Positions 1,927-20,000 of a DNA stretch of 20,000 nucleotides are shown piece by piece. This stretch comes from Patellaria atrata CBS 101060 (lineage: Eukaryota). The stretch's first letter is position 1, and each line of letters opens with the position of its first letter. The notes under the pieces were generated by a model, which searched no databases, had not been told where the DNA came from, and saw nothing but the letters and a program-made list of their open reading frames with translations. Both the position numbers and the translations under genes were made by a program. Location: contig MU006111.1 in the NCBI GenBank assembly GCA_010093705.1, positions 241,324 to 261,323 on the forward strand, read 5' to 3'.

Positions 1927-4169
1927 ATGGATGCGAATCAAGGGCAGGCGGGAGCCAGCAACTCCAGCGACTTCGTAAGTGAAACTGTACCTGATAATAC
2001 TCAGATATCGAACTTATACCTTACTAATGTAATGTGGTCGGCTAGGTTCGCAAATTATATAAGTTAGTCCTTAGAAAAAATCGCAACCCATTTCGCGGAT
2101 CGGACTCATCGCTAACAATGTTAACAGAATGCTTGAGAACCCCACAGATGAGAATGTAGTAAGATGGGGCAATGAAGGTGATAGTTTCGTTGTATTAGAG
2201 GTCAGTCTATGCTACTCATTGCTACACGTCGCAGATGATAACTAATCGAATGTAGAATGAGAAATTCACAAAGCATATCCTACCGAAACATTTCAAACAT
2301 AGTAATTTCGCAAGCTTCGTCAGACAATTGAACAAATACGATTTTCATAAGGTCCGACATAATAATGAAGAGTCTGGTCAATCACCTTACGGCGCAGGTG
2401 TAAGTGAAGACATATGTGAATGACTGTGACCTTTATTGATTGCTCGTACAGGCTTGGGAGTTTAAGCACCCCGATTTTAAGATGAACAATAAAGATGCGC
2501 TGGACAATATTCGGCGGAAAGCACCTGCCCCAAGGAAACCCAATGCAACCGTAGATGAGATGATGATCCCAACTCAGCAGATGGATCTCGTCAACACGCA
2601 ACTAGTTGCAACACAACAACAACTTCAAGCACTCCAGGAAAGATACAACGAACTCAGCATACATCATTCCATGCTCTTACAGGAGTTGATAGGGATCCAG
2701 AAGACCGTTGTAAACCACGAGCATGTCATGCAAAATGTGATGAGCTTCCTTCATTCCGTCGATGCACAACGTAGGCGGGATAGTAGGATGATGAACCCTA
2801 ATCCATTTGGACAAGCAAACGCACAAAACGGACAGGTGGATCCTGCAAACCAGCAAGTGACACCACTAGAGGACGATGTTCCGGCGTCACCATTACAACA
2901 TGCCTCGAAGCTGCTTAGTGAGACCAATGCGGATATGATGTTGAATCCGAGGAACCTGGAACATATGAATGAGGTATCAATGCGTATGAATGGAACGTTG
3001 ACAACCCCGCCACCCGATTATGTCCGAAATGGACAGCGTCCATCCAGTCGGGGTGCACCCACATCGGCAGGTTCGTCCACGTCGATGCGTCATGCCGAAC
3101 TTGATACAATGGTCTATCCTGTTGGAACCTCACAGGGTATTGATCCAATGTATAGTGAACACATTCATAACATCCCATATCCTCTACCCACTAAGGTTGA
3201 AACCAGTGATCCAAGGTTCCATCCCACAGATGGTCGAAAGAAGAGTGCGCAGGTTGACCCGGGGTGGCTCCGACAGCCTCAAATCCTGCTTGTGGAAGAT
3301 GATCCTACTTGTCGCAGAATTGGTGGCAAGTTCCTCTTCGCATTCCATTGTTCGATTGATTTTGCGGTAGGTAGCACGGAAACTTATAGTGAGCTTTGCT
3401 AATGATCCCATAGTTGGATGGGCTGGAAGCCGTGAACAAGATGAACGCCGGGTCCAAATATGACTTGGTCCTCATGGATATTATTATGCCTAACCTAGAT
3501 GGTGTATCAGCCTGCCATCTCATACGTCAGTTTGATTCTACACCAATTATAGCAATGACATCAAACATCAGAAGTGATGATATATCGATGTACTTCCAAC
3601 ACGGTAAGTTCCCAGTGCTGTATGATATCCTTAGCTCTTTCTGACAAATGAAAGGTATGAATGATGTGTTACCAAAACCGTTTACTAAGGAAGGACTGTT
3701 GCACATGTTGGAAAAACACCTTGCACATTTGAAGAAACCAGCACATTTGGACGGTATGGGTGCCCCTGTGCAACAACAAGGCAATTTGCAACCTCACCCC
3801 CAACAAGCAATAAGACAGGGATTGAAGGAAGCTGAATCTCCGGCAAAGTCACCGGCGACGACCAGTAATTGGAACTCTCCAAACCAGATGCCGGGAGTAT
3901 CCCCAGTGGGCAGTACAATGACCGATGAGTATATGAACGCAGTCCAGACTGGGGCTTATGGCACACCCATGACAGGAGGCATGGGATACAATACCTCTCC
4001 CCAACAGATAACGATGACAGCTCCTAGGGCTCAGCAAGGTGGTCATCGACGGCAGATCTCGGATATTACAGGCGGCGATGAGGCGATGAACAATGCGAAG
4101 CGGCAGCAAATGTACGTCCAACCCATGCAACAACAACATCAGATGAATCCCAACCAGAGACAACGGTGA
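1927..4169 (+). CDS. SKN7: Stress response regulator Skn7/SrrA/Prr1 (HSF-type DNA-binding domain, coiled coil, receiver domain), about 633 aa
   Basis: Exons 1927-1974, 2046-2062, 2128-2200, 2256-2399, 2452-3366, 3414-3603, 3655-4169, all with GT-AG introns and in frame. HSF motifs [20 protein letters not shown] and [25 protein letters not shown]. Receiver domain ILLVEDD...[14 protein letters not shown]...KPFT with the phospho-acceptor Asp intact. Gln-rich tail. Confidence 0.95.
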
Positions 4170-5021
4170 TATCTAGGACCAGGTGAATAGGTGTAAGTTG
4201 ATGACGATGACATTCTGAATCATTCAAGAGTTGGAAGGATATTGTTTTTGATTCGACGTGCTTCCTCTTGGCAAGGATATGCTTTTGATGATGTTCTTTG
4301 GTTCGTACCATCATGTACGCGACTGTATCTTATTCGAACTGTAATTTTTTCCCCATGTAAGTGGAAGGGTCAGTCTGGGGTTTCAGAGAGTGGACAAGCA
4401 TGATTCCCATGGCAAACAACTGCATAGAAGAACTAGAAAGAGATATAAGGAGAGAGAATACGGAGTGATCTCCGATGGCGCAAGTGGATAGGAGGAAAGT
4501 CGGATAGTACGGAGCGCAGCAAGTGAATGAAACGGCTTCTTTTTTTTTCTTATGATTCTAATTGAAACGGAATTCTTTACTTTCGTATGTGATTCCTGGT
4601 TGGCGAAAAGAAGAAAAAGGTTTTGAAGGGAATTGGGCGGGACGTAGTCTCCTTATAAACAAGTTGATGGAGCACAGAAATAAGGTCCAGCCCCATCTAT
4701 ACATATGTTTTGCTGTGTTCCTTAGTGTTCTAGATTCAAGGGTTCCAGATATCAGGCCAGTCAACAAAGGCTAACAAGCATCTGAGAGTCTCGCCTGTCT
4801 CTATCTGTAAAACTAACCGTTGCCAAGCCTGATATCCCGGGTTGTCAAGCCACATGGATCTATTACCAGTCATACCTTATTATTACTCCCGCACTTCGTA
4901 CTTTACACTTTATATCACTTTCGATAACTTCCACTAGAAGGAAATCTCACGCTTCAGTACAATACCTGCTTGATACTTTGATTACGCGTACCTTCATCTA
5001 TACCTACACATCACAATAATC

Positions 5022-7363
5022 ATGCCACCAAAAGGCAAAAAGAGCGCTGCAAGCGACAAGCAGAAGTCAGCGGAGGATGAGAGAGAAGAACCCCTCCAGG
5101 CAGTGGTGAGTAGAGCGGTCTAGGTCCTTTCGCCAATTCCCACACTGAGACAGCGCAGATACTGGCAGATCCCTTCGAGACCCGCTTCAGTCCATTCACT
5201 CTCGAGCGACCACGAGTACGTTCCCTGCAGGGACCCAGTCAGACCATGGTGCGACCCGTTTGCTGACATCCTGGCATAGTGTTTGCTCCCGCTCGCGAAT
5301 ATGCCGCTGATCGAATACACGTTCGAGTTCCTGGCTAATGCGGGCGTCGATGAGATTTTCGTGTATTGTGGTGCTCATACGGAGCAGGTAGAGGATTATA
5401 TACAGTAAGACCGCATAGCAGTTAGTTGAGGAGATAACTTGCGCTAACATGGTTTAGGGAATCAAAATGGTCATCTCGATCCTCCCCCTTCTCCAAGTTG
5501 GAGATAATACGATCGACGTCGCGATCAATAGGCGACGCAATGCGCGATCTAGACAAGAGGAATATCATGGGCGGAGATTTCCTCGTAGTATATGGAGACG
5601 TCGTCAGCAATCTTCCACTGGAATCCGCACTAGCAGCCCATCGTGCACGACGCATGAAAGACAAGAATGCTATCATGACTATGGTCCTGAGAGAGGCTGG
5701 AACGTCACATAGAACAAAAGCACATGGTACATGTCCCGTCTTTGTGGTAGACCCTACCAAGGAGAGGTGCATTCATTTCGAACAGATGCATCCAGGGCAA
5801 CATAATAAGTTCGCTAATATTGATCCACAACTACTGTTGGACCACCAAGAGATCGAGATTCGACAGGACCTGATCGATTGCGGGATAGATATTTGCACAC
5901 CGGATGTACTTGCACTGTGGAGTGATAATTTCGATTATGAAGCTCCGCGGAGAGGTTTTTTACACAGTGTGCTCAAGGATTATGAACTTAACGGCAAGAC
6001 AATACATACGCATGTAGTAAAGAATCACTACGCAGCTCGAGTGAGGAACCTACACGCGTACGACTCTGTCAGTAAAGATATCGTCTCTCGCTGGGCTTAT
6101 CCTCTATGTCCAGACAGCAATCTTCTTCGCGGTCAGTCATATCGATTACAGAAAGGCAACATCTATAAAGAAGACAATGTCATACTCGCCAGATCCTGCG
6201 TTATCAATCGTAGATCAGTTATCGGTCAAGGGACGAGCATTGGTGAGGGTAGCGTTGTCTCTAATAGCGTCATCGGTCGTTCATGTATTATCGGTAGACA
6301 TGTTACCCTCGATGGAGCTTACATCTGGGATCACGCTGTCGTAGGCGATGGTTCCGATATCCGCCAAGCTGTCATCGGCACCGAAGCCGCTATTGGACGG
6401 AACTGCAAGATCGAACCGGGCGCCCTGATCTCCCAAGGCGTCAGAATTGCAGATAACATGACCATCGCAGGTACGAGCAGGATCACGCGCACCAAACGCA
6501 AGCGAATGGACAAAGAGGAATTGTTCAGAGGAGAACCGGACCCCAAAGTGGTCGGTGAAGACGGCGACGGTTTCGAATTCGTCGACTCGGACGCCGACTC
6601 CGACTCCGAAGACCTCGCCGAAGGTCTCGCTTCCACGGGACTGATATACAACCTTTCCGCGCTCGCCCTCTCCTCCGACTCCATCTCCACGCTCAACTCC
6701 GACTCGGAGCTCTCAGACGACAGAACATCCCGCCACCATGCCGCCGACTCCTTCGCCTCCATAGCCTCCGACGACAGTCACGCGAGCCAACACGCAGAAC
6801 ACTTCCACAACGACGCCGCCGCCAGCATCTTCGACTCCCTCCAGAAGGGCGACGATACGTCTAACATCCAGCTCGAGCTCACGGCACTCAAGCTCAGCAC
6901 AAACGCAAGCGAGCACCAGGTCCGTCGCGCCGTCGTCGCGGCCCTCATGCGGCGTCTCTCTCAACTCGTCGACGCCGGTGCCTCCCCCAAAGACGCCGTC
7001 AAGGGCCTCGTTGCGGGATATCAGGACCTCGTTAGACGGACCATGTTCGATAAGGAGACGGTGGGGAAGCCGGATCAGGTCGATTTCCTGCTGCTGGCGC
7101 AGATGGATTGTTTGGCGAGGAGACAGGGCGAGGTTATGCTTTTGGTGCTTTGTACCGAGCTTTATAGTGTTGATGTCATCGAGGCGGAGGGCTTGGAGGC
7201 TTGGTGGATGGATGAGAGGGGTACGGCGACGGAGGAGTTGAGGAGGGTTAGGGAGCGCACGAGGCAGTTGATTGAGTTTTTGGGGGAGAGTGAAGAGGAT
7301 GAGGAGGATGAGGAGGATGAGGAGGATGAGGAGGGTGAGGAGGATGGGGATGAGGAGGAATAG
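5022..7363 (+). CDS. GCD6: Translation initiation factor eIF2B epsilon subunit, about 723 aa
   Basis: Exons 5022-5105, 5159-5215, 5280-5404, 5458-7363. N-terminal LQAVILADPFETRFSPFTLERPRCLLPLAN nucleotidyltransferase-like domain, DCGIDICTPDVLALWSDNFDY motif, hexapeptide left-handed beta-helix repeats, C-terminal W2/HEAT domain (NIQLELTALK...EAWW) and an acidic tail. Confidence 0.95.
7291..7360 (+). repeat. Coding (GAG/GAT)n low-complexity repeat encoding the poly-Glu/Asp tail of GCD6
   Basis: gaggatgaggaggatgaggaggatgag... gives EEDEEDEEDEEDEEGEEDGDEEE. Confidence 0.85.
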
Positions 7364-7771
7364 GGGGGAGGGGATATACCCGGGTCTTTAAGTAGATAGG
7401 ACACGAAGTCATTGTGGAGATAAATGCAGAGGTTAGGGATTTGAGCCAGATATGGAAGTTATATTCATTTCGAACCTATCCTCCGTTGCTAGAAGCTTCT
7501 TTGTGAATATACATGCTTTTTTGAGAGAGAGAATATCAATGTTCGCCATTTTGGTTACGAGCCCTTGAACCTTCTGAAGCAAGCTGGATAGCTCAAGAAC
7601 TTTGTCTTTGAGGACTTGCACTCGCACCAAGCACTCAATCAACTTGGTGAACCATACTAAATGACGGTGCACGAGTGGCTTCGCCTATAATCTACTCCCT
7701 AATTCATCATTCATCATTCATCAACTCGTCAACTCGTTAACCTCTCGTCTCGTCCACCAGCTCTACACTTT

Positions 7772-8942: not shown

Positions 8943-11900
8943 ATGGAAGAGCAGGAGAGCGCAGCTCAGCTGCAAGAGCTGGAGCAAACACCAGAACCCA
9001 CCGCCGCAACTGGTGAACCCAAGGTCCTTTTGGAGGAAGCGAAAGATGCTATAAAGACTTTGCCCGACAACGCACAGAATATCCAGGCTACCGTCCAGTC
9101 TGTCACGAATCATGCCCTGGGATTTCTATCTACGGCGAGCAACGAGACCCTGGGAGCTTGTCTCGTAGGACTGAGTGCAACCACATACTTGGTATTGGGA
9201 CGTGTCGGGTTGGTGTTGATAGGAGTTGTGGGTGGAGTGGTATTACACGCAAGCTGGGAAGGGAGCACGGCAGATGTAGCAGAAAAATCCAAGGAAGAGA
9301 AGAGAAGAAAGGAGGTAGGAGTCGATGTCCTCCATAGAGTTCTGGACTGGCGGACAAAAGCCCCAGAGACCGTTGATGGATCAGGGGATGGTGTAGGTAG
9401 CTTTACGAGCAGTCTTCATACTCGCAAACAGCTGGACTATTCGGAATTCAAGCCTGAGACTGCCGCGGCGCTGAACGATCTCACTGACGCCGTGATACGT
9501 GACTACGTGAGGTAGGGGATCTGTCCCCTTATAGCTGTACTTAGACTAATGTATATACAGGTGGTGGTATACTCCTGTCCTACCCTCAGAAGAGTTATTT
9601 CCTACCTCATCCCGAAAAACATTGACTGCTTTCATACTTTCCATATCAAATCATCTCTCCCGGAAGCGACCGGCCGACACGTTTCTCGATTTCCTCGCAA
9701 ACTCATCTTCCATAGTGGTAGTATTTCTCAATGAGTTAGCTAGCGCATTGACCGCATTACCATCCGCCGCTGCTCCCGAGGCTGTTGCTACATACTTGAT
9801 CTCAAAACCAGATAGCAGCTTGTCACAAATTCTAGACCGAAAGAACCAGGAAAGGAAGCTTGATATCGTCGCGGAAGATGTTCTTCAGACATACTTGGAT
9901 TCGAAAACGTATAATTGTGAACCCGCACGAGTCTTCCTCAGGGAAGTACTTGCAAAATTAATACTGGAGAAGACGGTTCAAAGTTGCTCTAAAGCCGACT
10001 GGGTCAACGGATGGATTGTCTATCTTTTAGAAGAAGGCGAGCCGGAGATAATGAACGTTATTGATACAGGAGTTAGTGGAGAATGTGGGGAGCAACTTCA
10101 GAATGTCAAAAAGCAGATGATTGCGCACGATGAAAATGCTTCAGCAGAAGCGAAACGTACGGAAGAGAAGGTCCAACAGCACAAACGAGTCGTCAGCAAA
10201 GCACAAGAAGCCATGGATGAAGCGATGAAGGAAGCACAGCGACTAACTCAACTCATAGCAGAGGAAGATGCAAAAAGGCAACGGGAACAAGGGTCTGTCA
10301 ATGCTTCAGTGAGCGACTTATCGGAGGTCACCACTCAGGGAATGGCGACACCTACATCTTCTCAGAGCGATATTAATGGGGAAAGCGATATGGCTACGTC
10401 AAGAAACATGTCTACTGAGTCATTTGGCAACGTTTTGACCGAACGGACGAACGGTTCCTCTAGCACTCTGCCTAGTATCAACACAAGCACTACTCCAGCC
10501 CCTGTCTCTGCTTCTGCTCCACAGCGTGCAGTGCCAACCCCTTTTACTAGCTTCGACCAGCTCATTCCACAACTTCCTACGGCCTTACTAGGGGAAGACG
10601 AGAAGCCGACCAAAGAGCCGCTTACCTTATCCAATGCGACTCTATCTATTTTCGATGATTCTATGCCTGGGGAAAAAGGTGTCATCCGCAGTAAACCGAA
10701 TGTAGATTATCTGATCCAGATCGAGCCTCGCTCTTCACATCATCCGGGGTGGATGATTGCTCGAAAATATGCAGACTTTGAGACACTGCACGAAATCATC
10801 AAAAGGTTATCTGTCATATCCGGCGTGGGATTCACAGAAACTCACCCTACACTACCTGCCTGGAAAGGTCATACTAAAGCTTCTCTTCGAGGAGAGCTTG
10901 AAAGATATCTGAACGATGCGGTGAAATTCAAGCCGCTAGCTGAGAGTGAAGGCCTAAAGAGATTCCTAGAAAAGGACCAAGGTTTAAGAAGCTCACCCCA
11001 TGCATCGAACAAGGGCGGATTCCCCGGTATTGGATGGCCCACCCCATCAGCTTTCGAGAACATGGGCAAAGGTATGATGGATGCTCTTACGAAGGCTCCG
11101 AAGGAAGTAGCGGGTGGCGGCAAAGCGTTGTTTGGCGGCGTCACAAGTGTACTGGGTGGTGTTGGTTCAATAGGACAGAGAAAGCAATCCGTAAATTCAG
11201 GAAGTCGAAGCCGCTCATCGACTTCAACTACTGCAACGACACCCAAATCAGGCCATATAAGGGTTGACAGTACACCGGTGGGTTTAAGTCTGAATAGGAA
11301 ATCTCAGGATGGGCTTACCTCTCAGGAGAGTCTACGACTGTCGCCCATCGTTGATCAGCAACCAGCTCCTATTCCCCAGATGGATCGGAAGCCTAGTTAT
11401 AATCCTGAAGTGGAAGCTGAGAGGGTACCTAGACTGAGTTCATCCTCAAAAGCATCTTTACATGCAAGGTCTGCAAAATCAAGTCGAGAGCCGAGTCGAG
11501 CTTCTTCGATAAGAGAAAGCTTGGATGAGCTTTCCCCTACCATGGGCGGTGATCAGATCCTCAACCTCCCTCCTCTCCCGACAGACATATCGGACGACTA
11601 CGGCAGTCCCGCCACATCATCACCCCTGCGTAACGTAAGGAACAGCGAAGAAATCAGCCGCGTCCTGAAAATATCCTCGCGCAAGCAATCCGAAGCAGAC
11701 ATCCCCTCCGTTCCGACACTCCCACCTCGCCCTTTCGAAAACAACGTCCCCACCAGCCCCCCTAAACACCCCAAACGCTCCCTGCCAAAACTTCCCCTCT
11801 CTGAAGACGAAACCAAGAATGTAGTAGAGCTCCTCTTCGCCGTCATAAACGAACTCTACACCCTCTCCTCGGCCTGGAACATCCGCCGTACCCTCCTCAC

Positions 11901-13069: not shown

Positions 13070-14876
13070 TCAATCGCTATCGACGCTGCCCCCGTCCTCA
13101 CGCACAGGCATGCGCGTCGTCCTGCTAAGAGAAAAATCCAAAATGTCGCTGCGGGGCTCGACGTACTTCTTCTGGCACCAGCTGCAGCGGACCGCGGCTG
13201 TGCGCTCCCTGCCCAAGGTGTCGCGCGTCGTGCCTTTGATGAAGATGAGCTGGTTCTTAGAGTCCTCGCGGTCGTAGACTTTATCGGAGACGCCGAAGGC
13301 GAGGACGGCGAGGCGGGTTTGGGGGGCGGGGACGGAGGGGTTGGGGGCGAAGTGGAGGGGGTGCGGGCCGTGTGGGGTAAGGTAGAGTTTTGCGAGGGCG
13401 GCGAGGAGGGTTTCGTAGAGGGTGCGTGGGAGGCGGGTTAGGGATGTTGCGATCGTGGGGAAGGTTGTGATGTTTAGCGTTATTAAGCCGGAGAGGTGTG
13501 AGAGGGCGCTCTGTGTGGCGTAGGTCAGCTATGTTCTGATATTTGATATACTAGGTAATTTGAATAGGAAGGGGCGTAGGGGAAGCATACATCGAAGGCG
13601 AGAAACTCTGCGCTAAGGTTTCGGAGGACGTTCGTCTGTGGGAAGGCTATGGAGAGCTGTTCGAGCCTTACGCAGGCTTTGCAGATGGAGTGGAAGGACT
13701 CGTAGTCATAAACGTGTTCTTCGTCCTCCCCGCCTCCGAGTGAAGCGTGGAGATTCAGTTGATTAAGCGTTCGGCCGTGTCTTGTTATGCAAGCTACCGC
13801 GGGGAGCGACTTCACGAAGCACATGTCCACTGTTAGCACCCTTATTCCAGATACAAGACAAAGGAAGCCCTCAAGTGCGTGCAAAGCATCGTTCTCGGTG
13901 TTATCGTCATGCTTGAACTCTAACGTTTCTAGCTTCTCGGGCATTAGGGTGATCTTGCTGAGTTCGGCGAACAGCGCATCCGCACCTGGACAGCCGAAGA
14001 TACGAAGAGATTTGAGGTGGCCGAAATCTATGATTTTGCAATAAGTATTCGAGGCGTACCGTAGAGCAATCTTCTGAAGGGTCAAGTTGCGCAGAACTAT
14101 AGGTGTACATTTATCAAATGGCAGCATATGGCTAAATATCGTCCCAGTAAGGAGACCTGGCCCTGTACTAGAGTCGTTAAGCTCTCTGGACGAGACATCC
14201 GTCAGAAGATCGTCGAAACTGGAGTGTAGGGTGATTTTCTGGACCTTGGGCGAGTTCTTGACCAGGTAATTGCAATAGTTCAGCACCTCTCTACTATCAG
14301 GATATAGACCCAGCTTCTTCACTTGACTAAACACATTCTTAATGTTCGGTATGGTTTGTATCTCCGGCAGAGCATCTCTGTCACATGCTATAGCTTCCAT
14401 CCATTTCATCCTCCTCTGTTTCTTGTACAGCAATATTAAATTGTCAGTCGAGAACTGGGACCAAGGATGCCATGAGAACTTTTCGAGGATATTCTCAGGG
14501 AGGAGCGCCAGGATCGCCCGAATGGTAAAATTCGCCAGTTGTATTTGATTGCATTTGTCTACCACTTCCGCAAGATATAGGTCTATCTTGCGAACGTATG
14601 GAAGGCCAATATTCCCAGGATTTAGGAAGTCTAGGAGCCGGGTGTCGTTTGCGGTTCCGATATCGATTGTGACTTCGTTGTATAGTTGTGGGACTGTGAG
14701 TCTATGTAACTGTTTGCAGGTAAGGCATAGGTTTTTCATGTCCGTGGGACGAGTAACCTAGCTTGATATCAGTGTCTTGTCTAATAATAGCAGCCTGCAC
14801 GGTTAATCAAATTTACATGGTCGATGATAAGGCGTTGGACGTCTTCTATAAGGTCCATGAACTGTAGACGACCCAT
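13070..14876 (-). CDS. F-box-like protein with a leucine-rich-repeat-like body, about 555 aa
   Basis: Exons 14876-14817, 14757-13591, 13510-13070, with introns GTAAAT..CTGAT..TAG and GTATGC..GCTGAC..CAG. The N-terminus FMDLIEDVQRLIIDHVTRPTDMKNLCLTCKQLH is F-box-like, followed by LxxL repeats. Ends ...EDGGSVDSD-TGA. Confidence 0.8.
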
Positions 14877-15724
14877 ATTAGCCAGATTAGTGAAATGAAT
14901 TTGCTCCTTTACTCGTCGGTGTAGGGGATGTGCAAAGTTTGATAGAACTACAGTTGCCTATCACCTGAAGATATCAACTGTGGATGCAAATGAAAAGAGT
15001 GGCGATTCGATAAAGATGCTAACAGATGTAGCTAAAGAGGATTGATGATCTTATAGAATGAATGACGATTTGCGCGTATATGAGGATGTATCACAATTTT
15101 TATTGTCTTGCAAAATCGGCGATACCGTTCGCTCGGTCAGCCCTGTGTTTTCAGGTGGGAAAACGAGACGCGGTGGTTGACTGCTCTATCCCAACTGGCA
15201 TTATTAGAGAGAGCAAACAAACCGCTGTACTGATCTCCCTGTACAGACAAGGAATCATATTGTCAACCTTTTGGTTTCTCACTGTTTTGGAACTTTGTCG
15301 ATCGTGTATTTTGAGGAGTAGACAACGTGGGGGTGAGACCAGCACAGGAAGATATCCGGCTCGCCCGAATAGGTCCGCTTATTGACAACTCTAATACCTT
15401 AGATACAGTGTCTAGGTCCAGAACTGAACCATTTTTTACACGTAGAAATGCATAGACTACTCTCAGACACGGGCTCTGTCAATTCAGGTATACAGCCCGT
15501 GGAAAAAAACATCATTTAAATATACTCAGACCGCAGTAGATAGATATCAAGAGCATATACATCAAGACCTTTTATATCAAACTCAAAGAGTTGAATCTTG
15601 GCCAAACCCTCCAAGAACAGTTGAACCACATGCGACCTTCGCCATATGCGCCTGAATATGCAAGTCACCCTCAGTAAACTCTTCCATTCCTACTAGTCAC
15701 AATGCCTCATCTCCTATGCATCGC

Positions 15725-17544
15725 TCAATCATCCCCATCTTCCCAGGGTAAACTAAATGTTCCAACCCAATCCTCCACTTCCTTCCTCAACTGAACAATC
15801 TCCACCACATCCTCTCCCTCGCCTAGATACTCTGTAAATGCCTTGACGCTTCCCGGATTCTTCCTTCTACTCTTCTCTGCTGCCTCTTTCGCCTTCTTAT
15901 CAACATCGAGCGTGATACCGACGGCACGATGCACAACATCCGCCACACGCCTGAAGTCATCTGGCTGGAATCCACGAGTAGTCATGGCCGGAGATCCCAT
16001 GCGTAGACCACCTGGTTTCATCGCAGACTTGTCGCCGGGGACGGTATTCTTGTTTGAGGCGACACCAACAAGCTCGAGAACACGCTCAACGCGAGCACCG
16101 TCAATGCCGCGGTCCTTAAGGTCAACAAGGACGAGGTGGTTATCAGTACCACCGCTTACAACCTTATAACCGAGACCACCCGACTCCTTTGGATTTCCCA
16201 GTCGATCTGCTAGCGATTTCGCGTTTTTAAGAACTGTTTGTTGGTACTCTTTGAACTCAGGGGTTTGAGCTTGGTGTAGTGCAACGGCAAGGGCTGTGAT
16301 GGTGTGGTTGTGAGGGCCACCCTGGTGACCGGGGAAGACTGACATATTGATAGGGCCTTCTAGGTCGTACATCTCTTCATTACCCTTTTTGTCGGTTCGG
16401 CGGACGCCTTTACGATAGAATATCATTGCACCTCGTGGTCCGCGGAGAGACTTATGGGTTGTAGTTGTCACAACATCAGCATATTGAAACGGTGAAGGGA
16501 TAACACCTGCTGCAGCAAGACCAGAGACGTGTGCCATATCACTGTAGAGGTATGCGCCAATCTTGTCACAAATAGCACGCATGCGGTCGTATTCGATCAA
16601 TCGACTGTAAGCGGAAGTGCCTGCGATTATGATCTTGGGTCGATAGAGAGTAGCATTTTCTTCTAGCCTGTCGTAATCAATTATCCCAGTCTTCTCATTT
16701 AACCTGTATGGAAACGTCTCGAAGTATTTTGATATCGCAGAAATCTTCTTGCCGGGTATTTGGTAACCGTGCGATAAGTGACCCCCATGGGGTAGGTCTA
16801 GGCCCATGATACGATCGTGAGGTTGGAGAACAGCGGAATATGCATAAAGATTGGCCGGTGATCCAGATAACGCTTGGAAATTGTTAGTACCATTTTCAAA
16901 ATCCGTGAAATGGGTGTAGCGCACGCTGAACATTGACTCCCCATTCGTCCTCTTTCAAACCGAAAGTTTGCAATGCTCTTCGCTGACATAGGCGTTCAGC
17001 TTCATCTATGAATTCGTTTCCTCCGTAGTATCGTGCTCCAGGATATCCTTCTGAATACTTGTCTGTGGTCTAGATGTTAGCATTACTCCCTCTGGGGGTG
17101 TATCCTTCGAGTTCTATGATCTAGCATACTTTGCATTACACTCCCTAGCGCATCCAAAACAGCTTGTGAAGTGAAATTCTCCGAGGGTATAAGGTTTATA
17201 AAATGTTTCTGCCTCCTCTTCTCCTAGAATACCACATTCATCAGGATCCAGTAGCTGTATGGGTCATTCTCGATACCTGACGTACCTTTTGTATTATTTC
17301 ATACACAATAGGATCTGCATCTTCTAAATCGGCAGACAGAATCTATAAATCAATAATTAGCGACCGGCACAATCTTACAGCACAACGCTATAAATCATTC
17401 TCGTACCTTATGCTGAGCATCCAGCGACAGACCCCGCCTAGTAGAAACCCTCAAACCGGGACTCCATCTCGTCCCAATTGGTCTCCCAGCAGCTCTAGCA
17501 AGCAGACTCACCGATGCCCTCGAAGAGACCACAAAATTCGCCAT
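15725..17544 (-). CDS. SHM1: Serine hydroxymethyltransferase, mitochondrial, about 524 aa
   Basis: Exons 17544-17407, 17342-17286, 17223-17130, 17062-16925, 16872-15725. Motifs [42 protein letters not shown] and the PLP-lysine motif [13 protein letters not shown]. The Arg/Ser-rich, acid-poor N-terminus [21 protein letters not shown] fits a mitochondrial presequence. Confidence 0.95.
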
Positions 17545-18682
17545 GATCTTCGAGTGTGACTCCTCTGCAGGACACGAGGGCAAAATGAAACTATACACGA
17601 GCGCCGAGAGTGGTGATGCAAGCTTGGACGGAAGCCGATAAATTAGCCACTATACTAAAAATAGTTTAGCTTTTCGACACCGTTTTTGCACTTTCAACTT
17701 GACGTTGAGTCCTTCGGTTTTTCTCTTCTTCACACAACTAAATCCAAGATGATGAAGAGCTTTCAGGGCAGTCAACCTCACTCGTACTGGCTTTACGGCT
17801 TGTGTGATGTGGGGGATGCTGAGATGTTCTGGGCCAGACTCACCACCTTTTGAGGGACAATTTGAAACCAGCTGATTGGAAAGTTGTGTATATCCAGCAG
17901 TAAATCTTGCTAGGGGACATTGATGCGAAATATAAGGATATGGTGGAAGTTCCTCATTAGGACGGGGATGATGGGTGATAGTTATCTACTACTTGTGCCT
18001 CGTGCCTGTAGACAGTTCTATCGCCCCGTCCGTAGACTTTGAAGTGACAGGAGATCGACAAGAGGAAATGTAACAAAGGAAATTCCTTACTCCTACACAG
18101 CTTACACCAACTCGACCACACTGCCAGAAGTGACAGTTCCCCAGGTTCCAGCTATCTATAAAGCCTACACCTTTTGAAGGACTTTCTGTGTAGGAGATTC
18201 GAGTTCGTCTTTAGTGAGATTCCGGTCTTGGGAGACGTACTCTACTATACACAAAATATGAGACCGTATAGAAGTGCCGTACCTATACAGTATGCGAATC
18301 TGCACGGTATGTTGTCCATCAGTTGGGAGTCCCCCTACACATTACTCTCTCTTATACAGTGGAGTTGGAGACAAGCTGAAGAGATCGCGTACAGTAGGCG
18401 AATAAAATCACGAGTAGACAAACGGTATCAGTAGAAGGGAAGATCAGAGTCCTCGACATGTACAATATGCGTACGTCTGCTTTATTCAAATAGAGTTCAG
18501 TATTGAGTTCCGTATATGGCAGGGTGTGACCAAGGAGTCTAGTCAAAACTTCCTACCCTCTCGCAATATATGCCTTCGAACTCGATGATTTGCTGCAGCG
18601 GCTACCTAACTCACTCCAGGAATACTGTAACTCTTATAACAATCACATTCCACCGTATTTAGAGAGGTCAATGTGCTCATCA

Positions 18683-18775
18683 CAGTGTGGCCAACGATCC
18701 GTATCGATAAGGTATTAGTATTCTCGGTATTTCATCGGTATTGTATCGAATATCATAATACCTTAACAATACTCT
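18683..18775 (+). mobile_element. Possible terminus of a hAT-like DNA transposon (TIR-like CAGTGTGGCCAAC plus subterminal GTATC/GGTATT repeats)
   Basis: CAGTGT start, clustered GTAT(C/T) motifs and a 10-bp inverted repeat TAAGGTATTA (18708-18717) / TAATACCTTA (18756-18765). Composition turns AT-rich immediately after. No partner TIR or target-site duplication is seen in the window. Confidence 0.3.
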
Positions 18776-18860
18776 TGGCATTTTAAGATTTTTTAATATT
18801 CTTTAGAATTCAACTAAAATATTATCGTTTTCTTAGAAATTTAATTAAAATAAAGATACT
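18755..18860. other. AT-rich tract, possibly RIP-affected repeat DNA
   Basis: Abrupt switch to TA/AT-dominated sequence (ttttaagattttttaatattctttagaattcaactaaaatatt...ttaattaaaataaa). Confidence 0.5.
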
Positions 18861-18928
18861 CTTCGTACGAAGGGATTATATAGCTATGAATAACATCTAT
18901 AGCTGTTCTAAGATAGAAGGCACGAGGG

Positions 18929-18982
18929 CGTGCCTACGTGCCTGCCTGTCCACCTGTCTACTGGCCCACCTGCCTACCTGCC
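18929..18982 (+). repeat. Degenerate tandem repeat of CCTG/CCTA/CCCA units (GCCTACCT-like 8-mers)
   Basis: cgtgcctacgtgcctgcctgtccacctgtctactggcccacctgcctacctgcc, directly upstream of a TATAAAA box near 18989. Confidence 0.7.
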
Positions 18983-19117
18983 AATTTGTATAAAATACAT
19001 CTTTTTTTTGAATTTCTCTTCTTCTCTTCTTCTCTCCTTCTCAATCTTTGATTTTAGTAACTCAAAGTGTAAGTACTCAGCTTAAACCTATCGTACGAAG
19101 GCTAATAAGACTATAGT

Positions 19118-19649
19118 ATGGCCAATACGCAAGTAGTTCTCTATAACCCAGCGATCACGGCTGCCGCTCACGCGAACCGCAACCCGGTGCTACTCGTAAC
19201 ACAGCAGCAATTGGCTCCGTGGTGTCACAGCCCACAGAATAGAGCACTTCTGGCCGTCGGTGGAGGTGTTGATGTTGAGTTCGTACGTGACTCTATCACA
19301 CCGAGCAGATTGGATCTCATAGGCAGTCATATGTCAATGGGATTCTTATCCAGTCTCGTGGAGGTGACGTTGATCCTTGTGCGGCTTGTCGTACGAGAGA
19401 TTTCCGTCCCTTCCTTAGTTGTCACCGCGCTGAGGGACACTTTGGCGGAACATGCGCCAACTGCAAATGGCGCGACCATACAGCACGCTGTTCCGTACGA
19501 GCTGGTGGTCCAGATAAGCCTGCTCAAGGAGCCAGGGTGCTTGGACCTGGTTCAGGGGTTGACGGAGCTGACGGCACCGCCCCTGGGAATGCTATTGTGC
19601 TGGATGACGATGAGGGGCTACTCCCCAAAATGCTATAATCATTGGTTGA
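19118..19649 (+). pseudogene. DUF3716-like Cys-rich protein gene, frameshifted (about 177 aa if restored)
   Basis: Frame 0 gives MANTQVVLY...VEFVRDSITP. A -1 shift near 19303 continues EQIGSHRQSYVNGILIQSRGGDVDPCAACRTRDFRPFLSCHRAEGHFGGTCANCKWRDHTARC, which matches my recollection of the DUF3716 (PF12511) pattern IQSRG..CxxC..PF..C...FGGxCANC.W...C. TATA box near 18989, CT-rich leader and a 5'UTR intron at 19069-19116 (GTAAGT..GCTAAT..TAG). Confidence 0.7.
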
Positions 19650-20000
19650 GCAGAGCTTCGTACGAAGTATTCTTTGGCGTTTAAGCGTTCTGGCGTTTCG
19701 GTGTTCTGCTTTGCCTAGCTATCCAGGGCTGTTGGTAGCACTCAGACGTGATCTGTACCTTTACGTGTGTCTGAGATCAGTAGCCATTAGGTGAAACTAA
19801 ACAAATCGTACGAACCTTTCAATAAATTTTTTTGTTTTGCCCAATGTTTAAGACATTCAGTATGTTCTAACTCTCTTGAACTTAAGCGTGATCTTTCCCA
19901 TGATACCGTACGACGAGCTGCTGAAAACACTCGTTCTGGTTCATCGCTCATTGCTGGAATTGAGAGGATCTCAATTGCAAGTATAGATAATCGTGGAAAC

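Follow-up and report, generated by a model that had tools for sequence, protein, structure and literature searches.

A conserved array of CGTACG palindromes accompanies DUF3716 genes on a hAT transposon end and on other fungal mobile elements

The 20,000-nucleotide stretch of Patellaria atrata CBS 101060 considered here (contig MU006111.1, forward-strand positions 241,324 to 261,323; the window, numbered from its first letter) ends in a mobile element that carries a gene of the DUF3716 family and eight copies of the palindrome CGTACG. By its repeats and coding capacity, segment 18683-20000 belongs to a DNA transposon of the hAT superfamily, whose left 1.3 kb is present before the element runs off the window end. 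We call it a hAT end because it encodes the dimerisation domain of a hAT transposase (E 3e-12) and begins with a terminal repeat resembling those of complete relatives, which bears out the original prediction of a mobile unit. Its features are listed below by position; those given without a strand sign are unstranded.

18683..20000: hAT transposon, left part; complete relatives measure 3.4-3.7 kb, and all 8 motif copies of the segment lie inside
18683..18698 (+): left terminal inverted repeat, CAGTGTGGCCAACGAT; 12 of 16 bases agree with CAGGGGTCCCAACGAT
18711..18762: GGTATT subterminal repeats, 4 copies (at 18711, 18726, 18737 and 18757), one of them inverted; distinct from the palindrome
18863..18870: motif copy 1, TCGTACGA (TTCGTACGAA); 180 bp inside the element end and 254 bp upstream of the DUF3716 ATG
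about 19069 (GTAAGT) to about 19116 (TAG) (+): candidate intron of the 5' untranslated region, plausible from its sequence
19091..19098: motif copy 2, TCGTACGA; 20 bp upstream of the DUF3716 ATG, inside the possible intron
19118..19638 (+): DUF3716 accessory gene with one frameshift near 19303-19310; frame 2 up to ...FVRDSITP, then frame 1 from QIGSHRQSYVNG... to the stop at 19636-19638
19282..19287: motif copy 3, CGTACG (TTCGTACGTG); DUF3716 codons F-V-R
19389..19396: motif copy 4, TCGTACGA; DUF3716 codons C-R-T-R, directly past the first CxxC
19493..19500: motif copy 5, CCGTACGA; DUF3716 codons S-V-R closing the cysteine domain, a site kept in relatives through codon choice
19658..19665: motif copy 6, TCGTACGA (TTCGTACGAA); between two convergent stop codons
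19787..20000 (-): 3' end of the hAT transposase gene, C-terminal dimerisation domain; stop at 19787-19789, gene continuing past the window
19806..19813: motif copy 7, TCGTACGA; minus-strand transposase codons S-Y-D
19906..19913: motif copy 8, CCGTACGA; minus-strand transposase codons R-R-T-V

The transposase assignment comes from a Pfam PF05699 match on the minus strand of 19790-19999 (E 3.1e-12; 46.5 bits against a cutoff of 21.4). In two complete relatives, L051 and L058 (numbers with L denote the loci compared here), CAGGGGTCCCAACGAT is the terminal inverted repeat at both ends, while a third, L023, carries CAGGCTTGGCA; the repeats of these relatives and of the window all begin with CAG. 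The first 80 bp of the element hold the GGTATT repeats, and the relatives have similar GGTAT or ATCGATA repeats in the subterminal position, which are probably the transposase's own binding sites. Matching 8-mers, as an 8-bp target-site duplication would leave, were absent from the flanks of the three repeat-bounded relatives; their ends may be off by a few bases or the duplications may have decayed. The BED finger and catalytic core of the transposase fall outside the window, and BED-domain matches in the relatives were weak (E 3e-4 to 3e-3). Contigs from one public sequencing run (X1, possibly related to the window's own source) are identical to the window across 18682-19264 and 19348-20000, with zero differences, and leave 14000-18681 uncovered; a 156-nt contig of the same run aligns in inverted orientation to 18691-18740 (3 differences) before diverging.

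The DUF3716 gene matches Pfam PF12511 (E 1.4e-12; 47.7 bits against a cutoff of 22) and retains the six conserved cysteines. When the segment was searched by tblastn with three homologs, two matched stretches were obtained, in frame 2 to about 19305 and in frame 1 from 19306. Since these stretches, in different frames, meet near 19306, the reading frame is, on this alignment, broken by a frameshift. We dropped an alternative model with an intron at 19283-19353 (GTACGT..CAG), as relatives encode FVRGxIxxxQxxxHRPSYINAxLIQSRG without interruption. A search of protein representatives at E up to 0.001 returned 177 DUF3716 relatives (cluster representatives), and the family occurs mainly in Ascomycota; a homolog search limited to the 94-residue C-terminal part gave no match at near lengths. 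The two identical X1 contigs break off and resume around 19265-19347, the stretch that holds the frameshift.

A direct count recovered the eight copies of CGTACG near the window end at exactly the starts first reported (18864, 19092, 19282, 19390, 19494, 19659, 19807 and 19907), with gaps of 228, 190, 108, 104, 165, 148 and 100 bp. Five of the eight have the extended form TCGTACGA and seven fit YCGTACGR. The remaining 18.7 kb hold three more: the two that had been found by eye, near 10156 and 18470, are both present, and a third, previously missed, lies at 6057; none of them has the T..A flanks. The whole window thus contains 11 copies where 2.79 are expected, a number reached by 0 of 200 dinucleotide-preserving shuffles, and 8 of the 11 fall within 6.6% of its length (binomial p = 5e-8). 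For the element part (18682-20000, 1319 bp), 2000 dinucleotide shuffles gave a mean of 0.24 and a maximum of 3 copies. DUF3716 has one palindrome upstream, a second directly ahead of the ATG and three within the coding sequence; another lies between the stops, and the transposase coding sequence holds two. The last two had been described as downstream, the transposase gene having been overlooked; they sit in its minus-strand codons (SYD, phase 1; RRTV, phase 0). The statement that the copies within DUF3716 occupy three codon phases held only in part, as those copies use phases 2, 0 and 2 (FVR, RT, SVR), and all three phases are represented once the transposase is counted.

The association was then measured in 80 metagenome-contig loci (477,699 bp) fetched by the peptide pattern G[ACS]C[GA]NCKW alone, a pattern taken from an alignment of 42 relatives and blind to the motif, with expected counts computed per locus from its dinucleotide content. 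There are 1062 copies of CGTACG where 62.0 are expected, and 417 of TCGTACGA where 5.0 are. No other of the 4096 hexamers is as strongly enriched as CGTACG (17.1-fold), its own overlaps coming next, and no 8-mer is more frequent than TCGTACGA; at least 3 copies of CGTACG are present in 69 of the 80 loci. After dereplication to 62 groups the count is 911 against 49.4 expected, with 46 groups reaching p < 1e-3. When 60 palindromic hexamers were compared, CGTACG was the best at p < 1e-4 in 52 of the 80 loci, and in 21 none reached that level. The original prediction would have fallen had the density around DUF3716 been at background; it is 17 times the composition-matched expectation in these loci, and the far flanks of seven non-redundant 20-kb loci are near background (13 sites against 6.6 expected in 77.9 kb). 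Forms one transition away are also enriched, 3-4 times, across L002-L081 (TGTACG 266, CGTACA 208, TGTACA 183), either as decaying sites or as tolerated variants.

Sites in the long loci are grouped in discrete blocks, which contain or border the DUF3716 gene, as at about 9.0-13.5 kb of the 20-kb locus L043. The three repeat-bounded hAT relatives have 67 sites in 10,531 bp inside the element against 3 in 5,959 bp outside, and with the window added the figures become 75 in 11,849 bp against 6 in 24,641 bp. Open reading frames (ORFs) of adjoining transposons are nearly free of sites: a long interspersed nuclear element (LINE) has 2 in 3345 bp, Tc3 0 in 843, pogo 1 in 2073 and a Helitron 0 in 2715. 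Beside them stand array carriers such as Gypsy (40 in 4814 bp) and the Crypton-like and IS3EU-like elements listed below. Locus L056:792-9151 provides a natural control, in which a LINE-like and a Gypsy element adjoin and only the Gypsy has an array (40 sites against 2). Pogo/Tc5 was considered as a further carrier class and rejected on the single site in the 2073-bp ORF of L002. The carriers, assigned by Pfam scans of long ORFs, are:

hAT (L051, L058, L023 and others): transposase tail beside DUF3716 in 20 loci (tblastn); 21-24 sites per complete element
Ty3/Gypsy (L013, L017, L056): polyproteins; 7.9-8.7 sites per kb in ORFs
Ty1/Copia (L026, L031, L039, L055): polyproteins; 6.2-8.9 sites per kb (L031, L039, L055)
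IS3EU-like (L004, L028): rva_4 integrase; 28 sites in 2886 bp and 15 in 2984 bp
Crypton-like (L043): NDC10_II ORFs; 13 sites in 1740 bp
Helicase element (L044, L053, L064): giant ORFs with OrsD and DEAD-helicase; 4.1-6.4 sites per kb

Spacing within the arrays is more even than a random (truncated exponential) model of equal mean would give. Gaps across loci have a median of 144 bp and a mode of 120-160 bp, their coefficient of variation is 0.65 against 0.86, only 5.6% are shorter than 40 bp against 20.6% expected, and 48% measure 100-200 bp against 25%. Because of this regularity the array looks selected for even coverage, at what would be approximately one site per nucleosome length.

The extent of the arrays also bears on an explanation particular to hAT elements, namely that the palindromes are subterminal binding sites of the transposase. 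Elements of this superfamily carry short repeated transposase-binding motifs near their ends, and the arrays are likewise short motifs repeated many times inside a hAT element. Such subterminal repeats lie only at the ends and are specific for a single transposase, whereas the palindromes span the entire element and cross classes. In the complete relatives the 21-24 sites begin 123-308 bp inside the ends and continue throughout the whole 3.4-3.7 kb; Gypsy, Copia and further classes lacking a hAT transposase contain them equally; and the actual subterminal repeats are different words (GGTATT or ATCGATA), the former present separately in the window. The explanation is already contradicted and we give it very little credence.

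The original prediction held that the constraint acts on DNA rather than on protein, and comparison of diverged elements together with codon choice shows that it does. Sites in 16 long ORFs occupy all three phases (R-T 129, x-Y-x 74, x-V-R 112) at 3.3-8.9 per kb in 15 of the 16, the pogo ORF of L002 having 0.5. Between diverged copies that have escaped mutation of the repeat-induced kind, sites are conserved 3-6 times as often as other hexamers:

Gypsy, L013/L056: identity 75%; sites kept 24 of 32; other hexamers kept 19%
Copia, L031/L055: identity 69%; sites kept 12 of 17; other hexamers kept 14%
Copia, L039/L055: identity 67%; sites kept 14 of 23; other hexamers kept 9%
hAT, L051/L059: identity 76%; sites kept 15 of 21; other hexamers kept 28%

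Within DUF3716 itself, the C-(S/T)-V-R that ends the zinc domain is written NNC GTA CGN in 27 of 29 cases, thus carrying the site, and the copy at 19493 in the window is this same site; in these ORFs just roughly one valine in four is encoded by GTA. As judged from these alignments, the sites are kept by purifying selection on the DNA itself, even within coding sequence.

It should be considered that the cluster might instead be a chance or mutational by-product, in particular of repeat-induced point (RIP) mutation. A single C-to-T change at CpA does turn CGCACG into CGTACG, with CGTGCG the corresponding precursor on the other strand, and the TpA/ApT ratio of the window element is 1.00 (its G+C fraction being 0.45 and its CpG observed/expected ratio 0.98). 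The RIP indices of the element are similar to those of the adjacent intergenic DNA. None of the 2000 shuffles of the element reaches even 4 sites, and the possible precursors are rare in the 80 loci, with 38 CGCACG and 74 CGTGCG against the 1062 CGTACG. Pairs of RIP type could be recognised by their differences, of which C>T and G>A account for 233 of 279 in L003/L027 and 254 of 254 in L023/L070, and the mutated partners retain only 6 of 18 and 3 of 13 sites, the others having become TATATA, TGTATA and similar words, while the un-mutated lineages conserve theirs. Since RIP-mutated copies lose the motif and do not gain it, RIP is not its source; the refutation foreseen in the original prediction failed, and a by-product origin can for practical purposes be set aside.

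The same pairs inform another explanation, in which the sites are an enzyme's substrate mark, for cytosine methylation, demethylation or cleavage at the two CpGs, and not docking sites for a coat. The core does contain two CpGs, and the 3-4-fold enrichment of the half-decayed TGTACG and CGTACA is what would be expected if CpGs mutate frequently. The CpG observed/expected ratio of 0.98 in the element argues against it, as do two variant palindromes described below, TTGTACAA and CTGATCAG, which contain no CpG, and no enzyme gene accompanies the module. Mutation rates at CpGs in three RIP-mutated pairs were 0.56, 0.39 and 0.48 within sites against 0.43, 0.19 and 0.47 elsewhere, that is, alike in two pairs and approximately twofold in the third, which lends no support either to protection of the sites from RIP or to their special targeting. 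We consider an enzyme mark improbable.

A motif read at the level of RNA deserves only slightly more weight. The self-complementary UCGUACGA could be bound by the zinc protein or could pair between RNAs, with a role in packaging, export, splicing (GUACG resembling the core of a donor site) or the production of small RNAs. Small cysteine-rich proteins are often RNA-binding, the carriers include retrotransposons, and most sites lie in transcribed ORFs. A palindrome is nevertheless the classic sign of double-stranded DNA read by a dimer, and the regular spacing of about 145 bp has no obvious rationale in RNA. The DNA transposons, moreover, have sites upstream of genes and within 123-308 bp of their ends, copy 1 of the window lying 254 bp upstream of the ATG. 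An RNA-level role thus appears a small chance.

Two loci carry other palindromes. In L072 (1-4477, 4.5 kb, G+C 0.57) there are 24 copies of TGTACA (consensus TTGTACAA) against 0.52 expected and only 4 of CGTACG, with gaps of 40-338 bp, mostly 126-234 bp, so that the spacing is like that of the CGTACG arrays. CpG observed/expected is 0.93 in this locus, and because CpG content is normal the TGTACA copies are not a deamination product. L062 contains 13 copies of TGATCA (consensus CTGATCAG) where 2.3 are expected, and 11 of these lie in a 2.5-kb stretch (3005-5497) adjoining two DUF3716-like ORFs; this may be a third type of site. The DUF3716 proteins of both loci belong to a divergent subfamily in which CKWHD...KC[ST]L replaces CKWRD...RCSVR. 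Site and reader would then vary together, as one would expect of such a pair, which with two loci we offer as a lead and not as a statistic.

These variants help to weigh the possibility that a host factor reads the palindrome, for example a transcription factor with sites in host promoters, from which the transposons borrow activation, DUF3716 being otherwise employed or serving as a cofactor. In one fungus, according to the available text of the report, an element containing TCGTACGA is a positive promoter element at a host gene, its binding factor being unknown (PMC6637983). The window copy retains its sites despite a broken DUF3716 gene, and the DUF3716 fold has no match to a known DNA-binding domain, as a host reader would allow. 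This explanation does not account readily for the lack of arrays on neighbouring transposons without DUF3716, for the conserved site within the DUF3716 gene itself or for the different palindromes that accompany the divergent DUF3716 subfamily, and an array that is regular over coding sequence is not one clustered in promoters. We regard a host reader as unlikely, though worth keeping in view.

Turning to the protein, the six nearly invariant cysteines follow the pattern CxxC-x11-C-x10-CxxC-x8-C, and histidine positions are not conserved. The AlphaFold model of a full-length homolog, P0012, has a predicted local distance difference test (pLDDT) score above 90 across residues 21-130, and because of this confident span the domain is predicted to exceed the 59-residue Pfam model; the window fragment alone folded poorly (pLDDT 63). 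The core has a net charge of about +5.6, the tail is 21% Asp+Glu, and a (N/D)P(I/V)x(L) motif follows the domain in 54 of 130 relatives, at the very C-terminal end in 41 of those; the window encodes GNAIVLDDDEG. This layout would suit a DNA-binding adaptor or activator. The element classes are intermixed on a tree of 43 DUF3716 sequences, with 21 label changes against 22.8 in shuffles, and the DUF3716 of the hAT locus L016 is sister to that of the IS3EU-like L028 (support 97/86). The gene seems to move between element classes, to judge by a tree of 93 alignment columns with little resolution.

The position of the gene recurs as well. In hAT, Gypsy and Copia loci (L013, L017, L039, L055; window 19118-20000) DUF3716 is convergent with the main ORF and sits immediately beyond its 3' end, an arrangement that in retrotransposons makes the gene antisense to the genomic RNA. 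A distant DUF3716-like gene is found in a conserved host context, with a STE3 pheromone receptor, Brix and a tRNA synthetase, at approximately 10001-10500 of L057, L061, L063 and L065; it has no array, two CGTACG lie within the gene, and it may be a domesticated copy.

Literature searches, with supplementary files outside their reach, found no description of the palindrome array. Two papers each touch one half of the pairing of array and DUF3716, and neither, in its available text, joins the word with the protein. In Pseudocercospora fijiensis, a Dothideomycete, a 19-bp promoter repeat holding the exact word TCGTACGA raises cyp51 expression when multiplied, a positive effect on transcription, and the available text reports no arrays in transposons (PMC6637983). 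REP9 of Zymoseptoria tritici is an IS3EU-type transposon with two DUF3716 genes inside it, one of which affects a host trait; here too the available text reports no arrays in transposons (PMC8232023).

The nearest concept is VANC of the Arabidopsis VANDAL (Mutator-like) transposons, an element-encoded accessory protein with short motifs accumulated in the same element; related proteins have different motifs, and the suggested benefit in both systems is escape from silencing (PMC5735166, as far as its available text goes). VANC localises to non-coding regions, and its targets are often tandem repeats within one transposon family (PMC5735166), in contrast to the DUF3716 sites, which are dispersed at about 145 bp through coding sequence and found in six element classes including retrotransposons. 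DUF3716 proteins are not known to be related to VANC in sequence, and Pfam gives only DUF3716 for those studied. A second likeness concerns mobility: the available account of TET/JBP dioxygenase genes places them on 11 lineages of fungal DNA transposons and finds their trees not to be structured by transposon class (PMC12730594). This too is one accessory gene passed among unrelated transposon superfamilies, and the DUF3716 tree behaves likewise. TET/JBP is an enzyme, however, with no cis site mentioned in that account (PMC12730594), while DUF3716 is a small zinc protein joined to a dense cis array, also on retrotransposons.

Two zinc-domain families offer partial comparisons. The plant SBP-box, a zinc-binding domain measuring about 76 residues, has TNCGTACAA as its target, in which the GTAC core is essential (PMC10796333, available text), and the likeness is in the target word only, GTAC being also the centre of TCGTACGA and TTGTACAA. 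DUF3716 differs in having six invariant cysteines without conserved histidine positions, and six DUF3716 proteins gave no Pfam SBP match at E up to 10, while the P0012 model had no structural match to solved chains. Gal4-type Zn2Cys6 clusters have six cysteines arranged CxxC...C...CxxC...C and bind inverted half-sites as dimers. Their cysteine pattern is similar, but the first spacer of DUF3716 is 11 residues and not 6; no Pfam Zn_clus match was obtained at E up to 10, and no sequence or fold match in the PDB.

Some further sequences came up along the way. The window genes beside the element are core fungal genes (eIF2B-epsilon, a PXA/PX sorting nexin and serine hydroxymethyltransferase), and runs of GGA/GAG/GAT triplets at 774-851 and 7264-7368 are ordinary low-complexity coding sequence, the second encoding the acidic tail that ends the eIF2B-epsilon ORF. 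A protein query of a viral-contig collection gave one match, L001, weak and of low complexity, which was set aside. Two viral-contig loci with three spaced TCGTACGA, L082:4141-4531 and L083:1242-2370, proved to be unrelated: the word lies there in tandem repeats of 35-bp and about 66-bp period without DUF3716, probably ordinary prokaryotic or phage arrays. L018:976-2778 has dense CGGCCAG and CCTGGCCG repeats (37 and 28 copies) and ORFs matching collagen and pentapeptide-repeat models, all unrelated to the palindrome.

Taken together, we consider it very probable that the palindromes form an array over the whole element, conserved and under selection, which is tied to DUF3716 in unrelated kinds of mobile element. 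Array and gene would form a portable two-part module, common to at least six unrelated classes of fungal mobile element, DNA transposons and retrotransposons included. The window's eight palindromes would then be the visible part of such an array, approximately one YCGTACGR per 145 bp, on a hAT transposon beside core genes. The co-occurrence and the two loci with variant motifs support DUF3716 as the reader, a possibility raised in the original prediction, and on balance we lean towards its protein reading the palindromes as docking sites. The protein has a basic zinc domain with six cysteines, then an acidic disordered tail and finally a short peptide motif at the C-terminus; it would bind the palindrome, probably as a dimer, and at about one site per nucleosome length could coat the entire element. 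Such a coat might keep the element transcribed or shield it from host defence of the genome, whether based on chromatin or on homology. The sites of the window copy, whose own DUF3716 is frameshifted, would be served in trans by other copies.

Several points weigh against this interpretation. The window's DUF3716 gene is broken while its sites are intact. No significant array was found in 16 of the 62 locus groups, among them close DUF3716 homologs (L005, L010, L036, L054), and in L002 the sites surround only the DUF3716 gene and spare the adjacent pogo ORF. Both ends are known only for the hAT elements, the other five classes being linked to the array by adjacency and by block continuity in short contigs. 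The covariation of site and reader is based on two loci only. The RIP-mutated relatives indicate that an array gives no absolute protection. Comparison of the P0012 model with solved structures returned 0 Foldseek matches at E up to 0.001 and no VIA-align match with Z of at least 2 over 48,161 chains, and the DUF3716 profile reached an E of only 0.65 as its best against PDB sequences. Finally, the function, that the coat counters silencing or activates transcription, is a tentative guess from the architecture of the protein and from analogy.

A wider and still more speculative extension is that DUF3716 and its array are a portable cloak, which any class of fungal mobile element could acquire and which would block genome defence. 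The coat might stop the spread of heterochromatin or methylation, or the homology search of RIP, which needs uninterrupted stretches of comparable length. Reader and site would diversify jointly into private specificities (TCGTACGA, TTGTACAA, CTGATCAG), and through stray sites in host promoters the proteins encoded by transposons would be able to rewire host genes.

How fungal transposons counter host defence is largely unknown, and the finding offers a testable pair, one protein family and one 8-bp word. Selection on this pair is strong enough to shape codon choice over entire polyproteins, in DNA transposons and retrotransposons alike. It provides a candidate function for a domain of unknown function, and a simple sequence signature separating live from decayed transposons, and it might connect transposon-encoded proteins with host promoters in which the same word occurs. 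If the joint diversification of reader and site proves true, the two would also constitute a natural set of orthogonal DNA-binding modules.

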